The notes under the pieces were generated by a model. It made no database searches, was not told the origin of the DNA, and saw nothing but the letters and a program-made list of their open reading frames with translations. Made by a program: the position numbers and the translations under genes. DNA of 64,000 bases from Chrysomallon squamiferum. Its lineage: Eukaryota; Animalia; Mollusca. How positions within the stretch are numbered: position 1 is the stretch's first letter; every line of letters begins with the position of its first letter. Below are positions 20,566 to 64,000 of the stretch, piece by piece. The stretch is taken from positions 17,670,001 through 17,734,000 of the forward strand of contig CM022672.1 in the NCBI GenBank assembly GCA_012295275.1, in the 5' to 3' direction.

Positions 20566-22274
20566 GTTTATTTCTGTACCCAGATGTCTAGATAATTTTG
20601 GTAATTAGCAAGTATCACTGGCTTTCTGAAAAAGATGAAACATTTAATTTTTATAACAATACATGCATATTTGCTCAAAGAAATGACAGTATAATAATAA
20701 TGAGTATTTATATTTATTATTTAAATTATCGTTATCAATTTCTTTTGCAAGAAAATCAATACTATAGCAATCTATATAAAATCATATAATGAAACTATAT
20801 CCCAATTATCAGTTCGTTTAATAATTTAGTTTAGACTTTTATTGCTGTGGATATGGGTATATATGACAGTCTGATGATAATTATAATTAAATTATTAATC
20901 ATTAAATTAATGAATCATTTTAATGTTTTACAAAATAAAGAATACAACGGTAACACGGACTCAAGTATCAAAATTATGTGAACATGTATCCTTAATAGAT
21001 CATTTTCTATGCATGTTTCCTAAAAATACTCATATATTATAAAGTGATCTAGTTAATTCATAGCTTGACTCTTTTACGTACACCTGACTACTCAAAATAG
21101 TTACCAAAATGTTTCGTAACTGTTTACTTACTTGGTGTTACGCACATCCGTTGTTTCTTTGATATATTTCCACAATCGTAAAAAAGCTCCGTGTTACTAA
21201 TATAGTCGTTAAAATGTGTAATACACATTTTACCGACAAAGCTAGTTTTCTTACAGGCTTGAAACTGTTTATATTCTTAAGTCTGCATTTTTTAAATGTC
21301 TTATTCAGTCCTTTAATACTGCATCAGAAAGCAAACTGTGTCTCTCAAATGTTATTACCTCCCATTTGTGGACGACAACTAATAAAATTATAAGGTTATT
21401 TGGTTTTGGCTAGGTGTCGTTAAATATTTAATTGCTTCTAATACTTGAGATCGTATATATATTACTTATGTATTTCATCTACCTTATTACATTGTGTTAC
21501 TATTTTAATAAATAAAAGCCTTAGAAAATACTACCAAAGTGAGGTAACTGGGTAGTGTGTAGTAATATTAAAATAATCAGTGGATTAATCAGTCTCAAAA
21601 TATTAACAACATGGTCTAAGAGCGATAACTCCCTCAACAAACATACTGTATCTTTGCATGAAACATTTTATTATTATTGTTATTATTATTATTATTTCGT
21701 AACACACACAATTACTTTATCGTCTAACAGAGGTAACTCTGTTACGATAGTCAATATACTGAGAAGATTGAGTCGCCGTATTTACTTTCAAGGATATTAT
21801 AAAGGACAAAGATCTGAACACTAAACGTTTACTAACATGTCCAATATTTCAGCCGCAACAAACTGCATTAACAAACATAGTATCATAATTTTACTTTTAA
21901 AATAATAATGATAACATTTAATGTTCCATATCTTTATTAAATTAATCATCATAATGATACAATCAATGAATCATACAATGATACATCCTACACGATTTCG
22001 TTATTACCAGTAGCCGAGTAGGCGCTGAACATTATAAGCAGTACATACATTTCATAATTTATTCTACAGTTGATTTCATTATGATTAGAATAAATAATTA
22101 CAATTATGCTAACATAACTTATGCCATAAACTATTATTCCAAGAAGAACGTTTTCTGAAATATCTTACGACCGGACTCTGTGTTTATCGAGACAATCACT
22201 AATATTTCCGGTTACTGAATGGAGACGCTAGAAACATGGAATTAAAGTGTTCGTGAACTTTATTAAATTCTCCA

Positions 22275-24865
22275 ATGGCTATTCCTAAACGAAAACTTTT
22301 AAAGATAGTCAAAACGAGTGCTATTATCTTTACAATAGCAGCCGCTATCTTTGTTTTGCGTTCTTTTTATACGAAGACGCCCATTTTAGCAATTTTTAAG
22401 TCACGATTTCGTCTTGGAGATTTTTATTTCGACTATGGATCAGGTGTATTTACATTTGAAGATGAATCCGGCAACAAGTATTTATCAGTGAGAGTTCCAG
22501 AAGCAGTTCAGTTTCTACCAGATGCTAAATGTTCTTCCATTAGCGATGACAAAAATCTTTGTTTTCAGTGGATGCACAGAGGGAAATTAGAAGTAAAAGA
22601 AGGAGTGTATGAAGGTGTCAGATGTTACAACGTGGTATGGACACCTAAAAATGACGGTTTTATACCCAAAGATTGTATTCCTTTAAGCACTGCTTTTTGG
22701 TATGGAGGTGCTACACATTTCAATCATCAGTGGCCATTAAATAAAATTAAAATACCAATGCAGCCTTTCATTTCATCTCCAATTGCAAAAGCCATTGAAC
22801 TGGGACACGAAGTTTTTGGATCCGTTCTTGAACGGTTTTGGATCAGCTCAAACGGAGTTGGGATAGTTGTGGATAATCTGGTTCCTCTGCATGTTAGTGT
22901 TAATGAAACTGTTTCAAACTTGCTGTGTTTCAAAACTGATTATCAGGGGAGTGTTTTTCAGAATCCAGAAAATGCACCACCTGTTCTTAGGTATTCTATC
23001 TGTAAAGCTAAAAATGTTAAAGAAATTCACAGTTTCCTGTATAAAAAGGTTTTCTCAAAGCCTCTGTCACCACCAGATATGAAAATTGTAGAGAAGCCAT
23101 TGTGGTCAACAGGGGCACAGTTTGGAAGACAAGTATCACAGCGTAAAGTCCTGAAAATGACTGATAAAATAGTGAAAACAAAGTTTCCTAAAGGTACTAT
23201 TGAAATTGATGGTGACTATTACAAGAATATTGGTGACTTCAACTTCAATGACAGAAAATTTCCAAATGCTCACCAAATGTTGGGAGAGATAAAACAAACA
23301 GGATTTCAAATAAGCACACAAGTGACTCCTTTTGTTAAGCCTGACAAAAATATCTCATTATATGCAATAGGTGTCAAAAAAGGCTACTGGATTTTGGATG
23401 CTAATGGTAAAGAACCAGCAACAGTAACTTGGGCAGGAAATAAAACGGCCCTTCTTGATGTGACAGACAGTGATGCAGTGAAATGGTTTTTAGACAATCT
23501 TGATACAATAAAGAAAGAATACAGATTTGACAGCTACAAATTCAGCTTCGGGGAAGCTAGTTTCTTAGATTACAGCATGAACACTGACAGCATTCTGCAC
23601 AGCCCTTGCGATTATGCCACAAAATATGTAGAAATGGCCAGTTCTTTTGGAGACACTGTTGTTGTTAATGTTGGGCATCAGACACAAAAGTATTCTGTTT
23701 TTGTGGAATTAGGTGAAAAACACATGCACTGGGGCTATGATAATGGACTGAAATCAATAATCCCCACAATCCTGACACTTGGAATCTTGGGATATCCTTT
23801 CATTAAGCCAGGTCCTATTGGTGGATATGCACAAACGACTGGGAATTCTTCACATCAGCTGCCTGATCCCGAGTTATACATCCGATGGATGCAGTTGGCA
23901 ACCTATTTGCCTGTGATGGAATTTTCAGTTTTTCCATGGGATATCAATAATGATGTTTTAATGTTTGCACATCAACAGGTACAGCTGCATACCAACAAGT
24001 TTGCTGCCATCATTAAAGCTGCCGCCAAGGAATCACATTTGTCTGGTAATTGTTTTAATTCAATGGACACTATTAGCCTATGTTATCAGCTGGCATTTGA
24101 TAGCTACAGTGTATTTTTGATTAATACACTATCACAAATGACCCACGTAATTCTTATAAGGCATCATTAAACAGTTGAAGAATATCTTTGCTTAACCCAT
24201 TGACCAGTAATAATGCATCTACTTGCTATGAGTTGTACTTGTCATTTAAATAGTTGAGTAGCTTTGGTTTTTATGAACAAATCATCTACACAGATATTTT
24301 ATAAACTTTCAGGTTGTTGCTAATTATATCATACCTGACTAATTCAAAGAAAAAGTAAAAAGCAATAATGTTTTAACAAGATCATGAAGATGGATGGACG
24401 ATAACAATCTGAAGTAACCATAGCCAAAACATTTAAACAAAAATAAAGAAATAAAATGTATGTGTGTGTGTATATATATATATATATATGTATGTATGTG
24501 TGTACAGCAAATCTCTTTATTCTGGTTTAAATATTTTTTATTTCATTTTAATTTTCTAATTTTTTATTTTTTATTAATTTTTTTTTTTTAAAGGTGCTCC
24601 AATCATTCGTCCATTATGGTGGATTGCACCTGATGATAAAGATGCTCAGACGGTTGACAATGAGTTTCTTCTTGGTGATGATATTCTTGTTGCTCCTGTT
24701 TTAGACAGTAAGGCTCGACAAAGAGATGTCTACTTGCCACCAGGCAGCAGATGGAAGGATAATCTGAGACAAGATAAGCTGTACGAAGGTGGTCAGTGGC
24801 TAAAGAATTACAAAGTGGAATTGTACGAAATCGCCACATTCCTCTTAATCAAATCTCCACTGTGA
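22275..24865 (+). CDS. MYORG/KIAA1161-like glycoside hydrolase family 31, type II membrane protein, ~680 aa, 2 exons; probably catalytically degenerate
   Basis: Exon 22275-24045 (G|gtaat) joins exon 24594-24865 (aag|GT GCT CCA) in frame. Features: N-terminal TM anchor, WYGG, GSVLERFWISSNG, WGYDNGLKSIIPTILTLGILGYPFI, PDPELYIRWMQL, PIIRPLWW and EFLLGDDILVAPV motifs of the MYORG subfamily. Confidence 0.9.
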
Positions 24866-34634: not shown

Positions 34635-35646
34635 TACCGAAGAGCCAATGAAATATCTTCTTATATAACGGAAATTGTCCCGACGTTTTCAGGACAGTGT
34701 TATAGTCTCTATCAATAAATCCGTTCTAGTAACGGAAAAATTAATGTAAAAACTACGTCTGTATCTAAACTAAAAGAATGAAGAGTAATAAAAATATTAA
34801 ATCTGTATTATGACAACAGTCTTACAGATATATGTTTTCCAAATTTCAAATGATTTATAAAATGTATGTATTCATATTGTACATTATAAAGTATATAAAA
34901 TAAATAAATAATAATAACAACAAAAGAAAGCTGTTTGCATAAAGTATAAATCATAACTACATTTATTGTCAAGAAGAACTAAGAATTCTTCATAATATCA
35001 TTGTGAATCATGTACAAACCAATTCAGTCAATAAATAAATGTCTGTTTTACGAGCACAAAATTTGTGTTAACGGTTATTAGATAACAATGAAATAAAATA
35101 TATGCTTATATAAAGAATAGTAATAATAAATGTAAGAATAAAAAAGTATTCATTGCCGCCACTCCCTGTATGACTGCTAAAAATATTTTATATAAATAAA
35201 AAAAATAAATAAATAAAATTAAAAATTAAAAAAATAACTTACTACAGACTTTGATTAATTTCATGAAAAAACACAAGAAAACATCCGCTGCCTCCAGTCC
35301 CCGAGTTTCTGATGCCGATCAGCTAGGAATTGTTAATGCATGCAAGCTAGTAGGCACTTACAGAATCACATACCTGTTTTAAATGTAAAGAAAAATAAAT
35401 AATGTTTTACATCTAAAGATGGCAGGGGAAAATATTACTGCATAGTATTTTATTATTATTATTTTTTTTATTTACAATTTTTGTAAACAAAGATAAATTG
35501 AAACTGATTATAACATATAGTTTAAAATAATTATGGTTGCTGAGCAGCCATTTTGACGCTAACTTTAGGAAGTTAAGAGTATCAAAACTATACGCACTTC
35601 TCTTTCAGTCTGATCAACCGTTTTTAGACACTATATAATTATTAAT

Positions 35647-38600
35647 ATGGAGGTTACCAAAGGCGTTAAAAATCAAGCTAACAATGAATCTAATGATTTG
35701 TATAGACTTGTTGATTTGAAAGGAAATGGCCACTTAGTTAAATTAATGAAGAATGCCAGATGGAGCAAAAACTACACTCCTGTGAATGAGGCCTTGGAAA
35801 CTGATGTTTTACCATTTTTAATAAAAAAAGGAGAGGGTGAAGAAGTTTCAATTACCGATTTAGTAAAAGCCAGAAATGAAGAAGCAGGCCGACCTAAACC
35901 TAAAAACAAAACGCCAGGAAATCAAAAAGAAAGTTATATACCAAAGAAACCAGGTATTAATATGTTTTAATAACAAGATAAGTAATATTTTTGAAATACA
36001 TATACATATTGACATTGGCGGACATTATTATACTACTCAAAGCCGCCCAAATTCTCCACCAAAAGAACATAAATTGAAAAATCAACAATAACAATTTATA
36101 TATAGGGCCTACATATGGAGCTGAATAATAGATTGTTGCTATATAATAATTATATTTTTACTATAATAAAAATTATTTAAATTTTAAGTAAAGCAGAGTA
36201 AAAAACCTTGTGTACAAATTATATCAATCACAATCACTGTCTTGGTTATTCTGGTTGTTTTGCACCTGATCATAATACAGTTTTCTGAAACAAACATGGT
36301 AATCTGGCCAATTAGGGTACTAGGAAATAACATGGGGGGTATCCAAGTGATGAACCATTATAAATATATATATATATATATAAAATGGAGATAGAATCAG
36401 ATAGACACATATATACACATAATATTGTGTAGATTCCGAGAAGATTTAAGCCTGACTTAAAACATTTATTTATATTTGATTCCTTTGACTGCATATTCAG
36501 ATTAAGTGGATGTCTTTACAAGTACTTAATGTAGAAATTTTAAATGCTGACTGAAATAATAAAAAATAAAGCCCGAATATAGTGTCACTGTAAAAATATT
36601 CTTTTATTTTCTTTTTAGTTTTATTCGTAACTCCTTTATTTAGAATTTGGTTTACACTTTTCAAAAAATGAATTTTCTTTTTTTAAATCTTTTTTCTAAA
36701 AAAAGTAAAAAGAACACGCACAGTATGTTGGGACAGAAAAAAACGTGGAACGGTAGGAGAATCTATACTTCATCTTTGTCTTCTTAACTCAACAATCGTG
36801 CACGCAGAATTGGCAAAACGTCTCATCAACAGGTTTCCCAAACTTGTTAATGATATTTATTTGGGAGATGAGTACTATGGTAAGTGATTCATACAATTTT
36901 TTTTTATTAATTACTTTTCAGACTGTAATCAGTAACAAAGAGTCAAACGATAATAGTAGTGTAAAGGTATTTTCTTCCAGGACACTCAGATATGTTCATA
37001 CAAAATTATTTTGTAATATAGCTGCACAGTATATTAAAGTGTTTTTGTGTAACAGTAAAAGCAAATGGCATAAATCTATTTTGTATCCTTTGAGTTATTG
37101 TTAATAACAAGGTATTAAAATGAAGAAGCCTTGAGATTGGAATTTTTTTTTTTTTTTTTTTTTTTTTTTGTAACTTGAAGAGAAAGGATGTAGATAGTTC
37201 ATTATTGTAGTACATCCTATGTCTATCAGGGAGTATTTTTATACATTTCTTTACGGAAGTCAAGATAAAAAATAAAAGGTTTGTTATTTTATTGTTGTAT
37301 GGTATTACCAGCAAAATTAAAATGGATGCAAGAAATAACAACTAAAAAATAAAAAAATTTAAAAAGTACCACCAGTTCTTTAGAGGTATGCAGAAAGTGC
37401 TTTGACCTTTTTTCTTTCCACCATGCAATTTCTGATTTGAATTATTAAGAGTAATGCATATCTAAAATAATAATAATAATAATAATAATAAATAATAATA
37501 ATAATAATAATATGTATGTATTTAGAAGTCAAATCACTAGTTAGTAATTCAATTTCATTCAGGTGAAAGTGCACTGCACATGGCCATAACCAATGAAGAT
37601 CCAGGAATGGTGAGATTTCTACTTAATAAAGATGCTGACTGTCATGAACGATGTTGTGGTAACTTTTTTTGTCCAGATGACCAGAAAGATTCCAGGACAG
37701 ACAGCCTGGAGCATGAATGGGTAGATGTGTGTGAGAACACAAATTATGAAGGGTAAATCAATCACATTTATACAAGTACTTACATAAAGTTTTGTTTATT
37801 GTTTTTCTCAAGGCAAAAATTCACCATCATATTTTATGAAAACTTTGAAATCTATCACTTTGAACGCTTTCTCTCTTAATTATGTCTCAGAGAAAAAAAA
37901 GAAAAAAAAAAAAAAAGAAATGCCACATATTTAAACACTGATGAAGAATATATTAAATATGTTTCTATATTATGTTTTGTTTATTTGTTATTATTTTTTT
38001 TTAATTTCTGTCTTTAATATTTTGCTGTATAGTTGTTTAAATTATATTTATTTAATTATATGTAGTTATTTAAATACTTTTTGTTTATATATTTAAAATA
38101 TTTTTTTATATATATTTAAAATGTTTTTAATGATTATAAATACATTTTAAAGCACTAGTATTCTTTTCTTAGACATTTATTTAATTTTTTCTAGTGGTTA
38201 TTTCGAATGCTTTTTTTTTTTTTTAAATTCCTGAATTTATTATATGTTTTTGTAATGCAGCCATGTCTATCTTGGTGAATACCCACTGAGCTTTGCAGCA
38301 TGCTTAGGGCAGGAGGAATGCGTACGACTTCTTCTTCAAAAGGAAGTAGAAGTGAATCGTCAAGATGCAAATGGAAACACTGTTATGCATATGCTTGTTA
38401 TTCATTCAAACAAGGTAATTTTGATGACTTAGTACCATCATTCTTCATAAATTTTTAGAATATTACATTCTGTGTCATTAAAAAAAAAAAAAAATGTATT
38501 TCTGGGATGCAGGCCAGAGCAGATGCCATTTATACAAATAAATCATTTTATAATTACAACAATAAAACAAAACAATTAAGTTAATTTTAAAGGAACTTAA

Positions 38601-40846
38601 TGCAGTAATAATTACTGATGCCGAATGTAGAAAGCTTGATGTTTTTTCATTATTTTTTTATTTTTAATATTTTATTATTATTATTAATATTATTATTATT
38701 ATTATTAAAAAATACTGTTAATTTTTGGGGGGCAGTTTACAGTTACTTAGTTGTGTATTATTTGATAGAGTATGAGGTATTACTAGCTAACAAATGAAGT
38801 ACAGATGATTACAGATTCAGAATACAGGCAATTAGGGATGGTTAATGTCTCGGGCAATATGAAAGAACAGTTAGTTACCAGTAGTAACACATTATTTAGA
38901 GGGACTACAGATCACTGCTAAACAGTGAAATTTTTATAAAATCATTTAGTAATACAGTATAGAGCATCATTAATTTCTATTAAAAGACTACTTTTGCTAC
39001 AGAAGAATGTTGCACATCATATTCAAAGATAAAAAGTTATATTACTTTTTTTCTTCTCATTTTATTATAAATCATTGTGTTCCAGATAAGATTTGAAATA
39101 TTTGTTAGTTACATACCAGTATTATTTTATGTTGATTATATTTCATTGTTTGTTTTGTAGGATAACCCAAAACTGTTGGTGAGTTGATTGTATTAATTTT
39201 TTTTTAGTTACTAGTACTTTGTTGCAGCTGTTAATGATAACCTGTATCTTAAATAAAAAAGGACACATTTATACAGATACTTCTGTCATTACATCAGAAA
39301 AAAAAAAAAATTGATGTTTTTTGAATTTTATAATGCATTCAACATGTTTTATTTATGGTTACCTGAAGTCAGACATGTCTTGGGCTACTCTTTACTAATT
39401 ATTTTTGAATACATCACCCTATAGCATGTGACATGATAATACACACCACAGTCTTTGTTACAAAGCTCTGATGCACTAGTTGGGGATAAACTTCAATACA
39501 AAATTTCAAACCAGATGTACGAATATTTATTTATGCTTTATGAAGCTTCATCTACTCAGATATTACAAATCTCAGCATTATTTAGCTGACTCCTGGGTGG
39601 TTTTTTTTTTTTCTTTTTTTTTCTTTTTTTTCTTCTATTTTTCTTGGGGTTTTTTTTTTTCTGTTTTTTTTTTTAATGTGTCAAATAATAATATAACCAA
39701 CTAATTAATTCAACAGGACATTTTTGACCTGCTACACAGCAAAGGTGCTAAGCTAGATATCAAAAATAGACAAGGCCTTACTCCATTGACTCTTGCAGCT
39801 AAACTTCCACGTAAGAAGGTTTGTACTTACAGTTATTTGTTCATTCAGGATTATAATGCGTCTGTGAGTGTGATATAATTTTTTATTTTTATTTTTCCTG
39901 CTGTATTTAATATATTATAACTGTTAAAAGGATGTACACCTTTCTTTATTTCTTTTCATTTTTTTTTTTTTTTTTTTTGAACATTTTAAAAACAGAAAAT
40001 TCCATGAACAAGTATGTACTTATAACTGTTTGTTGATTCATGGTTATAACTTGTTTGAGATGGTTAATTTTTTTTTTATTATTATTATTTATTTCTTTTT
40101 TTTTATTGTTTTTCTTCTGTTATAATTTATACATAATGTGTCATAATTTTTCATGAGGTTGTTTGCCATTGTAAAATAATAATAAAATAAATGTGTTAAG
40201 TTTATATTAATATAAATACTTTTGATGAATACACATTTTTACATGTTCTAATGAAATATTAAAATTATTTGATAATGGACAGGTTTTTTGTTGTAGTCAA
40301 ACCTGTTGCTGGGGTATAAATATTTCTTATCTAATATTTTAGCAATACTGTTTTCCAAAAAATACAGATGTTAATTTATATACATAAATAATAATAATCT
40401 TTGTACATTAAATTTCTCTGTAATCTGCACATAAATTCATAATTGAAAATTGTAACTCTAATTATTTGGGTAATGATTTTTATTTTGAATATTATGTCAA
40501 GATTATCTCAGTATGGAAATTATAATAATTACACAAAAATCTCTGAAGAAATGTAAAATACAAGTTTTGATTTTGTCAGCCTGACATTTCAAAGTTAGAA
40601 TTGTGTAATGTTTATATTTAAAACAAAGTTTACTATTCTCTGTCATTTGAAGTAAGTGGCGTACCCTTTAACTGTAATTTGACTTTGTCCAGTTGCATTT
40701 AGAATTATTACATAGGAAGCTGTAAAACATGTTCTTAAACTGAAAATTTTAAAGAATAAAAGTAACAGTAAACAAGTAGTATAAAGAAGAAGAGAAATAT
40801 TTTTTAAGACAGAGTAATAATACTAATACTAATAATGATGATGGTA

Positions 40847-40884
<38 letters not shown>

Positions 40885-41718
40885 AATAAATAAATTAAAT
40901 AAATGTATCCATGGTTAAATAATATTTGGGTTAGTTTGAATAGTTTTTCTTTTTTTCTTCGAAAATGTTCTGTTCATGATTTCTTTTTCAGATATATGAA
41001 CATATTCTGGAAAAGGAGCGTACAGTACACTGGACATTTGGTAAAACAATGTGTGCGAGTTACCCTCTCAAGGAGATTGACACCATATCTAGTGACGGCG
41101 AAATTAACAAAAATTCCGCCCTTAATCTTATCGTGTATGGGGTTAGTGCATTTCCTGTTAACTAATCCATCGCTTAAGTTAGTTATCTGAGCACGTAATA
41201 TTTAGTGGTTATTTTTTTTAACAATTTGACCATTATTATTGTTATTATTATTATTATTATTTATAAAATAATATTGTTTCTTCTTTTAATAAATGATGTC
41301 TGGACAGATGTTTTAATCCATTTTATGAGGGCAGCCGGTGATAAAAACATCTTTATTACTGACTTCAGATGCTTTTGATTACAGGAAAAGGCAGAGCATT
41401 TGGACATGATGGTCGGCCTTGTGGTCAATCTCCTGGAAGATAAATGGAAACATTTTGTGAAGAAAAGGTACAAAAATACAACTGAGAGAAATGTACTTTG
41501 AAGAATAATTGATTATTTTTATTTATTTGTTGTTCATTTTAGACAAAAGTAAGCCACAAAACTAGATTATAATTTTTTTTTTTTGTGAAATGTTTTAAAA
41601 GGTTAAAACATCTTAAAGTAACTGTGAATAATGTTCATAATATTTTTTGAATGTTGATGTGAAACTTTATACATACATACCTATATGCATGTGCAAGCAC
41701 GCACGCACACACACACAT

Positions 41719-41752
<34 letters not shown>

Positions 41753-44700
41753 CCCACCTAGCTTGGTCTCTTTTGATTTCATTATGTTGGACCGAAAATT
41801 ATATCTTTTATTTCCACTGAGAGTGTGATTTTATTTTTTATTATTTCAGTTTTTACAAAAGATTTGTGGTGTTTGTGGTGTATTTTATTTGTTTCTTCAC
41901 ATCATTCATACTGCGACCTGCAAAAGATATTTGTGTAGGCTTGAATGACACGCAGAGTAATGAAGGCTGTAATACAGAGAATGAAACTGCTGATCCATGC
42001 TATCTGTTGAAAGCTTACCAAACTGAGGACAAAGTGAGACATTTAATAATTATTTTGTTTAGATAAAAATAGCATTACAGTTCTATGGGATACTTGGATG
42101 GGATTAAAGGGCTCTTAGGCCAAAGATGGCAATAATCCAGAAAAGTCAATCACTATCTTTATTAAAGAAATCAGTGATTAAGGACATCATTTTATGATTA
42201 ATACAACATTTACCAGTTTTTAACTTCGGCTAAGAATATTTGACATCTAAATGCTGCAATGATTTTTATATTTTTAAACAGAGGGAGAAATTCATAAATA
42301 TATCTACCTTTAGAAGGAATAATAAATAATCCATCAGAAAGTAATTCTCTCTTTATGCTTTATTTTGTTCCATTAGTGTTATTAAAATGCAAAGATTTGT
42401 AAGTATGAAAAAGTCTTTTTCTGACTGTTAACTATCACAGTAGCCAAACACTGAGAATGTTGTATTATTTTACTTTTAATTATGTCTATTTCTTGCTCAT
42501 TTCCTGTTCCTACTTCATAAATGCGTTTCTAATTTTGAAGAGTAAATAAAAAGTCTTGACAAAAATGTTAATTTCTATGAAATACGGTTAAGAAAATTTC
42601 AGTAATCTCTAAAGTGCTAATGTAACTTTTGCTGTGTTTGGTTTTTCAAGGCAAGACTAGGATTAGAAGTAGCGGTTCTTATAGGAGCGATTATCTATAT
42701 TTGTTTAGCAATGAAGAACATATTTCGTCAAGGGATCTGGATTTTCTTAACCACAATGGTAAGTGAGAGTTTATTATGTTGAATGGTCACTGTTAGATTG
42801 GCTGGGTAAAATGAAGATAACTATTACTTTTGTATATTATTCAAAGATGCTGTAGTGAAATGAACACATACATTCTTTTTCTCTATAACTCCTTTCAAAC
42901 TGAAAGTTTTGTATATTTACAAATTTTACTATTTTTTGTTAGTTAGTTTTTCTTCAATGAGATTTTAAGATTTTACCTACTAATACTAAGCATGCTTGTA
43001 GCCAAACAAATAATATAGACTACTTTAATTACTTAGTAAAGCAATTTTCATACATTTAAATATTTTATGAAAATGCCCTTTCCAATCTTTTAGTATACTC
43101 CTCTTAACCTTTTAGTATTTCTTAATCTAACAACGTTACTTGTTTTATTACAGAAAGCTGCACCTGCTGCATTTTTGTTTCTTTTTTCCTGTTTCATGGT
43201 AGTCTTCATGCTACCTGGTCGAGCTTTTTGTTTCAGTCAGTATGAGGATGTTGTTGGGGTGTTGGCAATATTGTCTACTGCTCCTTACTTCCTCTTCTTC
43301 TGCAGGTTTGTATCATTCAAAAAGAGATGGTGTCTGTAGCTTAGTGATTATAGCTTTGGCTAAAGATGTTAAGAGTTGCAGGACAATTCCTTTATTTGAA
43401 ACGATATTCTGTTCCAGCCAATTATCATACCACCAGTTTATTAAAGTATAGCTTTCCTTTATGTTGCAAGGTTGAATTTAAAAATAATTTCCCGTTAAAT
43501 GATAAAATAGCGACCAGCTTGCAGCTTTTTTTATTTTAAATAATTGTTCTATAAAAACAGAAAAGAATTAATTAAAAATAAATAATTTAAACGTTTCATT
43601 TTAAATTATCATGCATGAATACTAAATATATTTAATATGATGATATATCATGAAACTATTTTATTTTACTGATTAATGCCATTCAAAAAATTTGTTACAT
43701 CTATTTCTCATAAAACCATAGTTTACAATTAATGTAATAATTCTTTAAATTTAATTCATTACTTATTTCAAAATAACATAAGTAAAGATATTCGTAAATG
43801 ACATCAGGGTCAAATTGTGTTATGAATTTTCAGAGGTGTCCCGAAAATTGGTCCATTTGTTGTCATGATCTACAAAATGATCAAAGGTGATCTGCTGCGA
43901 TTTTTCATCATCTATGCCATCTTTGTCATCGGGTTTTCACAAGGTAAATTTGTTGCTTTGCAGGAAAGTTTTATTTCAGAACCTCTGCAGAATTTATGTT
44001 TGCATTAACATTAGAATAAACTTTTAACAGCAACAGATTGCAGAATCAGCCCTACTCTGTGTGTCTGTTGCAGTGTTTCCCATTCTCTGTCCCATCATCA
44101 GTTTTTCAAAAGCTATGATATATACTTTCCTGTCTATGAGAAGGTGCATAAAAAATATCCTGTACTGCTTGTTATAAACAGTAGTTGTTGGAATGGTGGC
44201 AGAGGTTTTCTTGTGTTATGTTATGATCATTAACACTAATGACCTTTGGCATTAAACATTCATCAGTTTCTAAACTGAAATATATTATTAACACACTTGT
44301 AGTATTAATGTCACTATAACTTTAGGTAATGTAGTTCACAAGGATATAACAACATACTGGGACTGATGTATTTGACTCGTGTTCAGTGTAAAGAAACAAC
44401 TTTATTCTTAAAGGATCTTAGAAAACATTTAAGAAATTTCTGTTTAAATGTTTTCTAAGATCCTTTAAGAATAAAGTTGTTTCTTTACCCTTACATGTGA
44501 GAGACAGGTGTCACCATGTTGTATGTTATTTAAAAATAGTCGTATAGGCTGAGGATTTTTAGCAAAAAATCAAAAAATATTTGTATCTTACACTTTTCAT
44601 AACAAGAAATGATAAAAAATATTTTGTAAAAGTTCTTAAACTTTTCATAAATAGAAATGATAAAAACTTGAATATTATATTCTTAAAAGTTCATTATGAA

Positions 44701-47144
44701 ATCCAGAACATTTCCAGTCCTATGCATTTCAGATAAGGAATAATACTAACCTGAATATGACATTACATCAGAATAATTATTATTAAAATATGTTATACAT
44801 ATATGTCATTTATGTATAAGTAGTTAATATAATCAGCATAATTGGTATTTAGATATGGTACAAGAATTATATTATCTTAAAATATGATTCCATGGAAGAC
44901 AACAGATTTTTTTTATAATTCTATTTCTTTTAACATTTTTCACACAGTATTTAATTAGAAAGGCATTCATCATTGGTTTGATAGAAATAATCACATATTC
45001 ACACTTCTTATCATGTACTTCTGTATATTTCTTTAAATTAATCTCTCTATATATTTATTTCCAGCAATGTACATTGTTTTCAGAGACAATGAGAAGAGTG
45101 CATTTAAATATGCAGATCAGTCAATTTTGAACATGTTTGTTATGTCACTTGGGCAGTTTGCTGATTTCTATGACTCTTTTAGTGGAACTAAACACCCAGT
45201 AATGGGAAAAGTATGAAAGAAAAATCATTTTTGTTATTATTCTAATTTGTTGATTTGTTTGTTGTTTATTTTGTTATTATATTTTCCCCCCACCTGACAT
45301 TCACATACACTTTTCCCATTTACAACTGTTTCAACCCTGCACAACCATATATAGTGTTTGTTTTCAGTTTATATTAATTTCCTTTAGCATGAAAAAAACA
45401 AACAAAGGTAGTGATAAATAAAATTGCAAATAAAGAACAGTTTTTGAGAGAAAAAAATTATTATTTTAGGAATTCAATAAAACATTTTTAAAATTGAGAT
45501 GCTCATCTTGGTGAAAAATGTGAATTTGTTATAGAAAACACTAGAATTTAAGACAGTAATGATTTAATCCCAACAGTTATTGTATTACTTAATATTTCAT
45601 TCTATATGTGTAATACATTCTGTTTCAACATCAAAAGGACAACAAGATGTTTCCTATCATTTGATGCAACTTGTTGCTTTATTTCATTCCATCTAACTCC
45701 ACAGAGTTTTATTTATTTATTCAGTTGTTCTTGTCAGCAGTTTATTTCAGTTAACTTTTTCTTACAGACCCAAAACCACGATGACCATTGTTGCCACTTA
45801 GTTTTAGATGTGCCGTAATGTCTTCAAATATGGATACACCCATAATAAACTGTTTGAATTACAGGCAGTGAAACACTTGAGAACATTTTAACTGTTCTGT
45901 TTTTACAAATGGTTATTGACATATTTGAACGCAGTGTGGCACTATAGAGAAAATTCCACCACTTGATAATGCATTTATCAGATTTAAATCTTTGCTGCTT
46001 AACCAGTAAATTAAATTTTAATGAATAGTTTAATAATATTCCAGCAAAAATTTAACATGCAGTCTTTGTTTAATTGCATAAATATTTCCTTACAGAATAT
46101 ATAATAATATATTTATCAAATGTGGTATACCTGTATTGGGCAGAAAGATTTAAATCTGGTTTTAACTGGTTGTCCATGAAGAGTTAAAATTATTGAAGAT
46201 TTAACAGAAAGAAGAATATTTCTATGACAAAAAAACAACAACAATATGACTGAAATAATTATAAGTATATAAATTATTCAGTGACAACAACTTTAACGAA
46301 ATTTTAATTACAGCATGTTAATTAATTTTGTGTTTAAGTTTGATTGGAATGTATTCATATTAATTTAAGCTATATTGGATAAATATGATACTTAAATTGT
46401 TTAGAAGTGAGTGCAGACATTATAATCTGATCCTAAGACATATATTTTCTTGAATATTAATAATGCCAGCTGAAAAATATGATAAAAGTAAATTCTTATT
46501 AAATATCTTATTACAATGGAATTTTCTATTTACATATTATTTTTAAAAGTACAATTTGCAGGTGAAATTTAAATATTTATGTTTTTATTTTTAATTAAAT
46601 AATAACTTTTCTTGGACATTCCATATTTTTTTTTAAATGTATTTATTCATAATTTGATCCAAAATTTAGAGTGTTCATGAGTTACAACTGCACAATTTAA
46701 CCTTGTAATTTCAGCCATGTTTATTGCTTTTCGTAACATGGATAGTGTATTTTCTGCCCCATTAGACTGCATTGTGGGAATGTTTTCCATGTCGGTGGGA
46801 GATTTTGATGATTTGTTTGCTGATTTTTTAAGGCTTCCTTCCCCACTGAACGAAGTAACTCAAGTATGTACCAGCAACCAACCTTCCATCCTTCCTTCCT
46901 AACCATATTTATGCACTGCATGGTATAAGTAGCTTAAAACCGTTATCTGAAGTTGCTTCTAATTATTGATAATAACACATCAGATTTAAAAATAAATAAA
47001 TAAATAAATAAAATAAAATAAAATGAAAATTCATACCTTTCTTTTGTTGCAAATTACATCTATAATGAATTTTTTTTTTTTTTTTTTTGTTATTTTTTTT
47101 TGTTTAATTCAAAAGATTTAATATATTTTTTATTAATTATCTCC

Positions 47145-47185
<41 letters not shown>

Positions 47186-48639
47186 TGAAATTGATGGAAT
47201 AAATATATTTGTAATTACCATATATATATATATATTTTTAAATTCTTGTACAATTATATCATTTAAATGCAGTTAATATTTTAAGTCTATTTTAAATCCA
47301 GTTAATGTGTAAAAAAAAAAAAAAAAAAAAAATTATAAAGTAAATTAAGTGGAGTATTCGGTACAATTGGTTATTCTTTGATTAGGTTGTGTTTGTTATC
47401 TACATGATCATGGTAACTCTTCTTCTGGTGAACATGTTGATAGCTATGATGGGCAACACATACCAGCTTGTGAACCAGCAACAGAAGGAATGGTTTAGAC
47501 AGGTAAGTGCAAGCAATTTCATGCTGGGGCACACACGCACACACACACACACACACAGACATTCAAAAATTTAAATTTTAAAAATAAAATAAATAAATAA
47601 ATAAAATGCAGTGTTTGTATTTTTTTTAATTCTGAAAACTGAGACTTTTTGCAAGCAGCCAAAAAATAGTGATATCTTACACTTTTCATATATTTATGCA
47701 GTTAAATGGCATTCATTTTCTTAAGCCTTTGAATCAAAACATAATTTATGTTATCATTTTTATCTAATTTTTAAAAATGTATATTCAGTTTTTTGTGTGT
47801 GTGTTTTTGTTCTTCTTTATATGTGCTTTTGACTACAGGGAAAGTGAACTCGTTCTCTTTTAAAAATTAATTATTATGCAGATGTTAATTGTTTTCTGGC
47901 TTTTTTTTTTTTTAAAAACAATTAATTTTTGGTTTTTTAGCCTGGTGTTAAATAATTTATTTTAAATTTAAGGTGTAAAATGTTTGCAGCATTCAAAAAT
48001 AGGTGTAGATGTTATGCAGACCTAAGTTTCTATTCATTTGCAAAAATCAGTATATCACTTCATTTTCAGTTGAAATGTTTATTATTCGTTACAGTGGGCA
48101 AATATAATTCTAGTTATTGAGCAGAATTTCAGTAAAGAAGAGAGAAAGAAAATGCTGATAAAGTATTCAGAGCCTATTAAAAATGAAGAAAACCGAGCCC
48201 TAAACATCCGACATCATGAGTCTGTAAGATATTTCTTTTGATTGTATGTCTCATTTTGATTTGCAGTAAAAACAAATTTAACCTGAAAAAATTCTGTTAA
48301 GAATATGCTTGCATGATCTATAATATTTTTTTTTTGTGGTGGTTTTTTTTTTGGGGGGTGTTTTTTTCAATTATAAACATTTATCACTATATTTCTACTA
48401 GAGCAGGCTTTGAAATGAAAATGCCAAATGTTGCTGATGAAATGCTTAATGGTACCATAATACACACTTTGTTCAAAAATGTCGGTATAGGTATGTCTCC
48501 GATTCCTTTCCTTTCACTGAACACATTTTGTATTTAAACTCGGACTATTTTCAGAGAATGTAGAAAAGTTTCATTTATATATCAGTCATTTTTATTTCCT
48601 TTGCAGATTGAAGGTAAAGAAACATTAAAGACAAATTAA
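35647..48639 (+). CDS. TRPV channel, Nanchung/OCR-type, ~712-713 aa, 15 coding exons with two alternative versions of exon 12
   Basis: Exons 35647-35953, 36706-36879, 37563-37752, 38261-38414, 39717-39818, 40992-41141, 41385-41467, 41850-42033, 42651-42758, 43154-43305, 43834-43943, [45065-45210 OR 46715-46863], 47386-47502, 48095-48223 and 48607-48639 are all GT-AG and phase-consistent. Ankyrin repeats: [51 protein letters not shown]4-S5 linker [23 protein letters not shown]; S6/TRP region [15 protein letters not shown]...EWFRQWA. The N-terminus [18 protein letters not shown] and the [12 protein letters not shown] insert are Nanchung-like. Confidence 0.92.
44388..44488. repeat. Perfect 45-bp inverted repeat with 11-nt loop in TRPV intron 11
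   Basis: gtaaagaaacaactttattcttaaaggatcttagaaaacatttaa (44388-44432) is the exact reverse complement of 44444-44488. Confidence 0.95.
45065..45210 (+). CDS. TRPV alternative pore-loop exon 12a
   Basis: ccag|CA ATG ... GGA AAA|gtatga, 146 nt, phase 1 to 0. Encodes (A)[48 protein letters not shown]. Confidence 0.88.
46715..46863 (+). CDS. TRPV alternative pore-loop exon 12b
   Basis: ttcag|CC ATG ... ACT CAA|gtatgt, 149 nt, phase 1 to 0. Encodes (A)[49 protein letters not shown]. Confidence 0.88.
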
Positions 48640-49193
48640 CAAATGAAAGAACTGTTTAACCACATCTGTCGTGTGATCTCAGACTTCGCTTTGCTCATAT
48701 GGGGACAGATTTAGTACCAAGAGCAAGCAAGAACCTGCAAGATGACATTTTTATACAATAAAAAGTATATAAAGATATTTGCTCTGTTTACCTAGTGACA
48801 TCAGAGACGAATGTAATTTGCTTTTAAATTTCTGTGGGGTGGCACATTGGTATGAGTTTACAGATGCTATGGCAAGCTCAAAGTGGACAAAAATGTAAAC
48901 CAAAGCTTGCATTGTTTGGCAGTTGACTGAAAAAAGGTTATGTTTTTGTGCCTTTTATAATTGATCAGATCTGAGATAAATTTTTTAATGCTTTTTCAGT
49001 GCCATAAAGTGCGAATGGTATCAGCTGTGCTAACTGTGGTGTAATCTGGCCCAGACTAAATGGGTTTGTTTTAAGGAATAACTTTTATTTTATTTTTTAT
49101 TTTTGTTTGTGCTGTTTTTATTAGATAACTGGATACTACAGTAATAAAAGACACAAATTTAACGTTCTGAATTTTTAAGAATTCTGTAAAGGA

Positions 49194-49422: not shown

Positions 49423-50936
49423 GTAAAGGACTGTGTATTTTTGAATGCAGTACAACACTGTGTGAAGTGACAGTCAGTAATGTGATTAATGGAAATATTT
49501 CTTTTTTAATAGAATATTTATTACTAATAATGAGAACTGAAACGTTATTACAATTTAAATGTTAACTGTTGTTTTAAGAACTTTAATGATCTGAGAAAAA
49601 ATGTTTTATATAACTAATCAATTCACACTGTTATTCTAATAAAGGTGGTTGTTGGTGTGATACGAGCTTAAAACTTGTTCAGTGTTTATATGTCATAATG
49701 TTGTTACTTTGTCAAACTATCACAATTTTTGTTTGTTTTTGTTTTAATTTGCAGCGATATTTATATACCTCTTTACTTTAAAATTTATTTCATTTTATTT
49801 ATTTATTTTTGTACATATTTTGTTTAAAACCAAAGTGACTGTGCTGAGATATTATGTTTTGCAAGTCTCCATCCATCCTTTTATCCTTTCATTAACAGCT
49901 GCAAAAGATGGCTTAATATTTTGATTAACTGCTGATAAAAAATATTTTATATCTGTGATATTTATTACATGTTTGTTCTATATAGATAAAAATAAAAAGA
50001 TTTGTTGTATCATGTGGTTTATTATATTTCATTTTACAGGACCAAAATAACATTTAAAAAATATATATATATATGTATATATAATTTTTATTATTTTTTT
50101 ATTTTATATGCAAAGATTTTATTTTAAAAAAGTCTTGTTATGGCTTTTTGTGTTACGATTGTTATACCTCATTAATAAAAATATTTAGGCAGGCTCACTG
50201 ATAATGTTAAAATAGTTTTAATTTGAAATTAGAAAATACAATCCGACTACTTTTTAAAAATAAATTATATTATACAGTTGTACTGTTAATTTTGATGAAG
50301 ACATACAGTGATTTAATGATAACAATAGCTTTATAATTTTGTAAACCTGTTTATTTAAAAACTGCACATTATAGGCAATGCATTATATTTTAATTTTCAA
50401 AAGGCTATTATCCAACAAAGTTATCAAAAATACGTGGGACAAACTCCTATGAAAATATCTGGAATATACCCTAATCAATTCTGTGGCCAATTATTTCCCT
50501 TATAGATTTCGATTTTAAGTTGAAAAAAAAACACATCCTAAAATGATTGTTATTACTTAAAGACCATGTAATACAATGATTTGTGCTAATAAACCAGTGA
50601 TATATAATACGTCAAAAATGAACAAATGAACGATATACAAATATCTGCAAATTCCTTCAAAATATATGGCAAAAAATGAAAGCCCGTAAAAAGAAAAAGA
50701 AAGAAAAAGTTGGGGGTTTTTTTTTGTTTTTAAAGCATAAACCCTAATTTAATACAGCAGATTTTATAGATTTTTACGTCATAGATGTTTGACGTCAGTG
50801 TCATCATGCCCTATAAACAACAGAAGTTACACGGAATTTCTTATAAAATATGAACATAGATTAATTCTTCCTGCTTGTCGGATGGATTTCAAGAATCATT
50901 TTTCGAAATGCCATCATCGGAGGCAAGACTGAAAAA

Positions 50937-51374
50937 ATGCATTATATTAACACCACCAGAAGGAAAAACGTGCAAAATCCTCATAAACTGATCGGCTGTT
51001 TCACTTGTGGACTGGCCGTTGCTTTACTTGTGCACTTAAATGTGTCAGCGGATATCTTTTTTGTTGACTTGTTAATAGCTTCTTGCATATTTTCACTATG
51101 GTTCTTTTATGTGTTACATAACTTAACAGATTATCTTAATCACCGTCTGCTATTCCATCTTCTGTTTATCGTCGCTCGGCTTTGGGCACCTGATATTGGA
51201 TGCAGTGTTGTAAAATATATCTGGGAAAGCATATTTGGTGTAAAATATGCCAGTGAACGTATGGTCAAATTCTTTAAGTATATCCCGAACACAGCTTTTG
51301 TTTTTCGATGTTTTGTTATACCATTCTGTTTGATCTGGCCTCTGTGTATGGCTGTGGCGCGCAGAAGGCGATGA
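50937..51374 (+). CDS. Hypothetical intronless hydrophobic (multi-TM) protein, 145 aa, family not recognised
   Basis: A 438-nt non-repetitive ORF in a GC/CpG-elevated patch. Upstream are TTACGTCA (50774), TGACGTCA (50790) and TATAAA (50812); downstream AATAAA at 51596 and 51610. Several hydrophobic segments and a C-terminal RRRR. Confidence 0.45.
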   Translation: MHYINTTRRKNVQNPHKLIGCFTCGLAVALLVHLNVSADIFFVDLLIASCIFSLWFFYVLHNLTDYLNHRLLFHLLFIVARLWAPDIGCSVVKYIWESIFGVKYASERMVKFFKYIPNTAFVFRCFVIPFCLIWPLCMAVARRRR

Positions 51375-63390: not shown

Positions 63391-64000
63391 ATGGTGTTCA
63401 CTGGCATTCCAACTGTCTACAATCCATTGAAAGCAGGAAGCATTGATGGCACTGACACTGAACCACATGACCATGCTGTGTTTCGGGCTATGAATGCAAC
63501 ATACAAACCTAATAAATTTGTATGTGGAGACCCAGAAGCTACTGTGTTTGTTGCAAGACTTAATCGAGTTAAAACTAATGAAGAATCTCTCCAGAAAGCA
63601 TTTGACAAATTTGGTAAAATAAAACATATAAGAGTTGTTAGAAATATTGTGACAGGATTTTCACAAGGATATGCTTTCATTGAATTTGAAGATGTTAAGT
63701 CTGCAATATGTGCCAGTCGGGATGGAAACAACATGGTAGTGGATGACTTTGAGCTTCTTGTTGATATGGAATGTGAAAGAACTTTAAAAGGATGGATTCC
63801 AAGGCGACTTGGGGGAGGATTTGGAGGAAAGAAGGAATCTGGACAGCTTAGGTTTGGATGTAAAGACAGGCCATTCCGTAAACCATTTATAATTGGAGAA
63901 GAAAAAACATTTGAAAGGAAGTTAAGCAGAAGTGATGAATATTGCAGAGATTATAAAATCCCAGGAAGGTCTGGAAACCAAGATGATGAAGACCGTTCAC
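63391..64000 (+). CDS. SNRNP35: U11/U12 snRNP 35 kDa protein (RRM), 3'-truncated by the window end
   Basis: Open frame from the ATG at 63391: YNPLKAGSIDGTDTEPHDHAVFRAM...TVFVARLN...VTGFSQGYAFIEF...ERTLKGWIPRRLGGGFGGKKESGQLRFG, matching SNRNP35 signatures. It is absent from the ORF track because it has no stop in the window. Confidence 0.93.
   Translation, partial: MVFTGIPTVYNPLKAGSIDGTDTEPHDHAVFRAMNATYKPNKFVCGDPEATVFVARLNRVKTNEESLQKAFDKFGKIKHIRVVRNIVTGFSQGYAFIEFEDVKSAICASRDGNNMVVDDFELLVDMECERTLKGWIPRRLGGGFGGKKESGQLRFGCKDRPFRKPFIIGEEKTFERKLSRSDEYCRDYKIPGRSGNQDDEDRS

Follow-up and report, generated by a model that had tools for sequence, protein, structure and literature searches.

The region analysed here, hereafter the window, is a stretch of 64,000 nucleotides from the Chrysomallon squamiferum assembly GCA_012295275.1 (contig CM022672.1, positions 17,670,001 to 17,734,000, forward strand). 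Its + strand carries a gene for a TRPV channel of the Nanchung type, with a coding span, as aligned, of 35614..48223, established by tblastn, an ORF scan and a PDB search with an orthologue. In tblastn, Gigantopelta, Haliotis, Pomacea and Mercenaria proteins mapped coding segments from 35653 to 48223, and a short last exon, predicted by eye, is likely to lie near 48609-48640. The architecture of the gene, read from the Pfam labels of orthologues, the exon map and a structural model, comprises ankyrin repeats, six transmembrane helices, an S5-S6 pore loop and a TRP helix. The same strand of the window also contains a two-exon gene of glycoside hydrolase family 31 (22272-24862; PF01055 and PF21365), a hydrophobic open frame of 167 codons with no Pfam match on this strand (50868-51368), and an RRM-domain ORF (63391-63999; PF00076), cut by the window end, which we take to resemble U11/U12 snRNP 35K.

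The closest database proteins are mollusc models labelled 'TRPV5-like', the best of which is from Gigantopelta, with 84% identity on one ankyrin exon; across the aligned segments of the gene, tblastn identity to the Gigantopelta orthologue ranges from 49-92%. When the two Gigantopelta isoforms were searched against PDB, the best match was Nanchung (9nvo; E 6e-224 and 7e-231), Inactive scoring 2e-107 and 1e-110 and TRPV6 about 1e-60. An AlphaFold model of the isoform carrying pore exon B (see below) was built on a 70-sequence alignment with a mean pLDDT of 81.9, compared with only 38.8 for a fold made without the alignment, and Nanchung chains occupied ranks 1-4 of its Foldseek matches. As the original prediction had proposed, the gene is a TRPV of the Nanchung/OCR type, its similarity to Nanchung exceeding that to Inactive/OSM-9 and to vertebrate TRPV.

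The constitutive S5 exon (43834..43943, + strand) ends in phase 1 at the donor CAAG/GT, and the constitutive exon encoding S6 and the TRP box (47386..47502, +) starts in phase 0; both are defined by sequence, RNA contigs and tblastn. Between them lie two alternative exons on the + strand, pore exon A (12a; 45065..45210, 146 nt; CAG/CAATG ... AA/GTATGA) and pore exon B (12b; 46715..46863, 149 nt; CAG/CCATG ... AA/GTATGT), separated by an intron of 1,504 nt (45211..46714, +). Each has an AG acceptor and a GT donor, runs from phase 1 to phase 0 and is joined on both sides in RNA. A further constitutive exon follows S6 (48095..48223, +), as indicated by tblastn, by an RNA loose end at 47502 that continues into it when read by eye, and by a frame check. 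The label 'exon 12' agrees with the 11 upstream tblastn segments, with an extra exon possible in an unaligned stretch.

That these are two homologous exons was confirmed in their coordinates, splice sites, phases and translations. The A and B peptides are identical at 18 of 48 aligned residues, close to the one third estimated earlier by eye, with an alignment score of 63 that was matched by 0/2000 shuffles. A profile HMM of 54 pore segments from other species detected, across the 64 kb of the window, exons A and B only (E 2e-21 and 7e-20), and a third pore exon was ruled out there, the next-best hit having an E of 0.026. The predicted consequences for the reading frame also proved correct: with A alone or B alone the frame stays open through exon 14, inclusion of A and B together leads to a TAG at 46763, within 12b, and skipping of both leads to a TAG at 47496, in the S6 exon.

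Exon A encodes the end of S5, the turret, the pore helix, the filter SLGQFAD and a post-filter helix, and is of an ancestral-like type, while exon B encodes the same structural module with the filter SVGDFDD and represents the type regarded below as derived. The filter codons lie at 45145..45165 (+) in exon A and, according to the position table and the secondary structure of the model, at 46792..46812 (+) in exon B. Counting from the filter glycine (G), position G+3 is Ala in A (45160-45162) and Asp in B (46807-46809). In the model of the B isoform, the alternative exon spans the last turns of S5, the turret, a pore helix (residues 624-636), a short loop of two residues (G637-D638) and a subsequent short helix starting at 639, with residue numbers counted from the sequence. 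From this extent, each alternative exon is, in terms of the model, a complete outer-pore module; together with the alignment to the solved Nanchung structure, the model agrees with the earlier assignment of the segment to turret, pore helix and selectivity filter.

Five public data sets cover the stretch, four of them RNA. Expression evidence comes from assembled RNA contigs of these four runs, all from one study, mapped to 43050-47600; such contigs lose rare forms and carry no levels or tissues. Junctions 43943>45065 and 43943>46715 were each found in 1/4 runs, and 45210>47386 and 46863>47386 each in 2/4, run X2 containing both of these 3' junctions. One contig of 785 nt extends from an upstream exon and the S5 exon through B into the S6 exon with zero differing letters, and a second passes from the upstream exon through the S5 exon into A; two of the joints have just 28 letters on the short side. 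Neither an A-to-B joint (45210>46715) nor a skip-both joint (43943>47386) occurs among the contigs of the 4 runs, from which rare forms drop out. Thus all four junctions expected from one-or-the-other use are present in the RNA contigs and neither aberrant joint is. Another joint, 43772>46625, was treated as spurious because it has AT..AT ends, lies in repeats and is anchored by 21 letters on its short side. The listed differences between RNA contigs and assembly, 24 substitutions and 7 indels, are all intronic, and low-depth intronic contigs (pre-mRNA or DNA) also occur in the RNA sets.

These data bear on the idea that the pair is an artefact of assembly or annotation, produced by collapsed paralogues or haplotypes or by a pseudo-exon. 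It could be argued that the local assembly was compared with RNA contigs only and that 3 Biomphalaria models fuse both exons, but in the RNA contigs A and B connect to one and the same set of flanking exons with zero differing letters, and in independent genomes, too, the isoforms have identical flanks and A precedes B. An artefact is therefore extremely improbable and effectively refuted.

Exclusive use of the two exons, as originally predicted, is compatible with the RNA contigs of this gene, which lose rare forms, but is not absolute in relatives, where annotated both-exon and no-exon transcripts exist with truncated products. Both-exon splicing fully fits the truncated models Pomacea X5 (47/47 residues), Biomphalaria X3 (17/17) and Mytilus edulis X11 (23/23), and no-exon splicing fully fits Gigantopelta X3 (29/29) and H. 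rufescens X9 (30/30). At the level of the full-length protein, the choice between A and B is exclusive.

Steric exclusion was rejected as the cause of this exclusivity because the 1,504-nt intron between the pore exons is too long. A search of the pore-region introns for docking-site or selector pairing found nothing convincing, the repeats there being A/T runs and one hairpin in the upstream intron. This hairpin, located 5' of exon A (44385-44491), has 48-nt arms that are 98% complementary and an 11-nt loop, and is possibly the remnant of a small transposon. In the proposed mechanism, exclusivity would arise because the choice of splice sites is regulated, while both-exon and no-exon products would be cleared through frameshift and nonsense-mediated decay. 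Since the stops of the aberrant products precede later junctions, and truncated models are present in relatives, regulated choice with decay as a backstop is the likely explanation.

To describe the distribution of the pair, annotated proteins were grouped by identity of the 60 residues before and the 40 residues after the pore segment. This gave 84 groups, 21 of them with more than one segment, some of the 21 merely mixing close species. Exon pairs of relatives were taken from annotated proteins. A and B isoforms of one gene are present in eight gastropods (Gigantopelta, two Haliotis, Pomacea, Littorina, Aplysia, Patella caerulea and Biomphalaria) and in 12 bivalves (Mercenaria, four Mytilus, Pecten, Argopecten, Mizuhopecten, two Crassostrea/Magallana oysters, Ostrea and Dreissena), Mytilus and Mercenaria having three pore exons, two of A type plus B. 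The remaining molluscs have a single model each, which is compatible with an unannotated second exon. Only one pore type is seen in the annotated protein records examined from Octopus, Argonauta and cuttlefish, and likewise in those examined from annelid, nemertean, brachiopod, bryozoan, arthropod, hemichordate, amphioxus, coral and sponge. No chiton or scaphopod was among the matches listed, namely the best 120 rows of the protein searches.

The exon A peptide of the window is identical to that of Gigantopelta isoform X2 at 40/49 residues and the exon B peptide to that of X1 at 43/50, compared with 17-18/48 crosswise. These values (82% for A and 86% for B) lie towards the upper end of the 49-92% spanned by aligned segments of the gene, and outside the pore exon X1 and X2 are identical over 706/706 residues. 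Across species, mean identity is 53-59% for A-A comparisons, 42-49% for B-B and 35-39% for A-B. That both exons are old and conserved is supported by these matches and by the pairs in 20 species; both occur in RNA contigs, and both are intact in those species.

Several loci depart from the simple arrangement. In the unionids Potamilus (P0139/P0141) and Sinanodonta (P0019/P0142), the annotation gives A and B different locus tags that lie close together, with identities of 89% and 75% over the parts other than the pore; these are possibly gene duplicates each retaining one pore exon. The neogastropods Nucella (P0120/P0123) and Babylonia (P0121/P0124) have two whole-gene paralogues, about 73% identical, with models of B type only. 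In Biomphalaria, the automatic models P0126, P0241 and P0244 run the two pore exons together in one open frame, which is probably a mistake of annotation brought about by the exon pair. The B-like protein P0169 was considered as a possible cephalopod sequence, but this was rejected, as it was placed among caenogastropods.

If the two exons were functionally equivalent, both could have been kept because either works, or one could be a minor by-product. The somewhat faster evolution of B, apparent from the lower B-B than A-A identity, would fit such equivalence, as would the two neogastropod gene pairs with B-type models only and the cephalopods with A type only. Both exons are nevertheless intact in 20 species of two classes, retain 82% and 86% identity to Gigantopelta and have fixed type-specific residues, while decay would be the expected fate of a redundant exon. 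Functional equivalence is accordingly regarded as quite improbable.

In order to trace the origin of the duplication, a tree was constructed from 56 rows of the pore segment, on which gastropod B exons (79/94) and bivalve B exons (94/89) each formed one side of a branch. A reduced tree omitted eight long or odd rows (Acropora, Trichinella, Corticium, Bugula, Strigamia, Ignelater, P0169 and a Patella paralogue). On it all 21 B rows formed one side of a single branch (support 95/96), which emerged only once these 8 rows were removed, and outgroup rows fell among the A rows. With 50 columns, AU tests fail to reject separate duplications in gastropods (p 0.15) and bivalves (p 0.17), and the filter residues common to B exons could be convergent. 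A kinship of B with nematode OCR or coral pores was unsupported, those rows being long branches without a resolved place.

In relatives, the out-of-frame tails of annotated both-exon transcripts show exon A preceding exon B, as in the window; this is so in Pomacea, Biomphalaria and Mytilus edulis, with weak evidence (3 residues) for Mercenaria as well. A metagenome scan that served as an outgroup check yielded 78 loci from the best 80 of 157 confirmed stretches. None of the 78 loci has two pore exons, and none is recognisably from a gastropod or bivalve. Four of them, of non-mollusc type and covering S5 to S6 (L026, L027, L039 and L044), have the same intron positions around a single pore exon; the phase 1-to-0 module therefore predates the duplication. 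The simplest reading of these sequence comparisons, favoured though not proven, is that the exon was duplicated once, before gastropods and bivalves diverged, A being the ancestral copy and B the derived one. That divergence is of Cambrian age.

The filter was compared position by position in 19 A rows and 21 B rows, P0169 being left unscored because of a deletion there. Residue G+2 is always F and G+4 always acidic, and G-1 is mostly L in A and mostly V in B. At G+1, Q is found in 10/10 gastropod A rows and E in 8/9 bivalve A rows, while 18/21 B rows are acidic and the other three B exons have Q. Position G+3 is G or A in 19/19 A exons and E or D in 21/21 B exons, that is, acidic in 0/19 versus 21/21. 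As a result, the number of acidic residues within G..G+4 is 1 in gastropod A, mostly 2 in bivalve A and mostly 3 in B. The model, the Nanchung alignment and the position table together indicate that the alternative segment includes the pore helix and the filter and that filter charge differs between A and B. The predicted opposition of a neutral and an acidic filter thus describes this gene well (1 versus 3 acidic residues) but does not extend to the lineage in that form: G+1 varies and G+3 is fixed by type, so the lineage-wide signal is G+3. Since single-exon coral orthologues and one Patella paralogue have E at G+3, the acidic state there is not confined to B.

Position G+3 corresponds, by ungapped motif match, to TRPV4 D682 and OSM-9 D605. 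In the available text of the OSM-9 study, these two residues are aligned with each other, D682 lying in the outer pore of TRPV4 and the OSM-9 filter region reading SMGGYDYEEF; both activation and Ca2+ entry are stated to depend critically on D605, and acidic residues in this region to alter divalent permeation in TRPV1 and TRPV4 (PMC4164786). TRPV6 D542 maps to G+4 with a gap in the HMMER alignment, an uncertain match.

The charge difference need not act on selectivity. The exons may be truly exclusive and yet tune gating, extracellular modulation (by protons, redox, peptides or temperature) or subunit assembly. Most A/B differences lie outside the filter, and because A and B also differ in the turret and the post-filter helix, selection may act on gating or assembly. 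Bivalve B turrets have a conserved Cys pair (e.g. P0022, P0016, P0143), a possible disulphide or redox site; some heterobranch B turrets (Lymnaea, Biomphalaria; P0150, P0239) are long and Cys-rich; and the two A-type exons retained in Mytilus and Mercenaria share their filter but have different turrets. Among known channels, TRPM3 pore variants are described as differing pharmacologically (PMC9290681), and the loop between S5 and the pore helix of Nanchung as able to bind Ca2+ (PMC12808645). Against this, the sole perfectly discriminating position is a charge change beside the filter (0/19 versus 21/21), whereas B turrets vary freely in length and sequence. Tuning of this kind as the function in place of selectivity, the main competing reading, is considered rather unlikely, and it is compatible with an effect on permeation, not an exclusive alternative to it.

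Any effect on permeation has to be considered in the context of the assembled channel. According to the accessible text of the structural study, insect Nanchung and Inactive form a 2:2 heteromer that requires both subunits, is inhibited through Ca2+-calmodulin and has nicotinamide as an agonist (PMC12808645). The Octopus vulgaris orthologues, TRPV1 and TRPV2, are reported to respond to nicotinamide only when co-expressed (bioRxiv 10.64898/2026.03.27.714695), and neither the insect nor the octopus Nanchung-type subunit alone is reported to give current (PMC12808645; bioRxiv 10.64898/2026.03.27.714695). In the RNA of C. squamiferum, contigs with loose ends at 47429-47465 in three of the four runs (X1, X2 and X4) were read by eye as an S6 of the Inactive/OSM-9 type, the expected partner. 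By analogy with the orthologues, the gene product is likely not a homotetramer. The original proposal of two channels with different filters is thus retained as to two pore types, but homotetramers are unlikely given the 2:2 composition of orthologues, and with two Nanchung-type subunits per channel, exon choice would swap half of the pore, i.e. two of four loops.

Exon choice would then produce two subunits alike except for turret, pore helix and filter, and would remodel two of the four pore loops of a Nanchung-Inactive channel. Choice of B would equip each such subunit with one or two additional carboxylates in the outer mouth, at the TRPV4 D682/OSM-9 D605 site, and these would probably raise divalent affinity, with effects on the Ca2+ fraction, on block by Ca2+/Mg2+ or ruthenium red, or on conductance. 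A cell with both isoforms could assemble A/A, A/B and B/B pores. The reading preferred here, to which a probability of about 0.62 is given, is that the tandem pore exons are spliced singly and that B would make the outer pore more negative, likely altering cation permeation or block. A broader prediction is offered tentatively, at somewhat below even odds: that a cassette of 2-3 pore modules was in place before the gastropod-bivalve split, and that exon choice, made cell by cell, sets the filter charge and with it weak or strong Ca2+ passage, mixed A/B channels providing a third state.

Exchange of pore segments by splicing has precedents in other channels. The mutually exclusive exons 12a/12b of invertebrate Cav3 lie in the turret region of the molluscan channel and have a reported effect on Na+/Ca2+ preference; this swap leaves the filter ring unaltered, acting through the extracellular turret, and belongs to a channel family other than TRPV. 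In TRPM3, Oberwinkler reportedly distinguished long and short pore-loop variants in 2005. As in the TRPV gene, splicing of TRPM3 alters the pore loop of a TRP channel, and the variants are described as differing in pore properties and pharmacology, with tissue-dependent use; TRPM3 differs in using two donor sites in one exon to insert 12 residues (PMC9290681), whereas the TRPV gene exchanges pore helix and filter by means of an entire duplicated exon.

The closest precedent is NALCN, which in invertebrates has alternative pore exons 15a/15b and 31a/31b (Senatore et al. 2013, PMC3557258). The two systems share, as far as that paper's available text describes, tandem duplicated exclusive exons over a re-entrant pore loop with ancestral splice junctions, in molluscs, as well as a fixed filter charge difference and a fixed exon order (PMC3557258). 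They differ in that NALCN is a four-domain single chain whose switch, present throughout the bilaterians, exchanges E and K at a single one of the four filter sites; the authors were unable to confirm selectivity of the snail channel in vitro (PMC3557258). The TRPV gene encodes a heteromer subunit in which a small neutral residue changes to an acidic one at G+3 and the whole turret is included, with up to three copies in bivalves, and the pair is seen in gastropods and bivalves only. The insect Nanchung-Inactive channel (PDB 9nvn-9nvs, PMC12808645) and octopus TRPV1/TRPV2 share with it an orthologous subunit that needs a partner and has nicotinamide as agonist, but insect and cephalopod Nanchung-type records have one pore type among those examined.

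No description of duplicated whole-pore exons in TRPV/Nanchung was found in the open-access papers searched, and the original prediction likewise knew of none; subscription papers or supplements could hold one. The octopus preprint does not mention splicing in its available text (bioRxiv 10.64898/2026.03.27.714695), and the pore-exon pair is likewise unmentioned in the accessible portions of TRP papers on abalone, scallop, cephalopods, octopus and crayfish. Recent surveys of mollusc TRP channels, as far as their accessible text goes, collapse isoforms to one per locus or leave them undiscussed. The TRPV pore-exon pair is hence real and conserved and apparently undescribed, its design being already known from NALCN; the isoform sequences have been present, unremarked, in automatic annotations. 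To pore-exon switching known from four-domain channels (NALCN, Cav3) and to the short insertion in TRPM3, it adds whole-pore exons in a TRPV.

The pair amounts to a natural, long-conserved chimera experiment, in which, as in Gigantopelta, subunits are identical at 706/706 residues outside the pore exon. Because the isoforms differ in the pore exon alone and the nicotinamide oocyte assay works for the octopus channel, determinants of Ca2+ permeation in Nanchung-Inactive/OCR-OSM-9 channels are directly testable. The switch bears on whether Ca2+ entry or depolarisation is what counts in invertebrate sensory cells, a question posed for OSM-9 (PMC4164786). It also implies that cloning 'the' TRPV of Aplysia, Lymnaea, Biomphalaria, oysters or mussels captures a single pore where the gene offers two or three.
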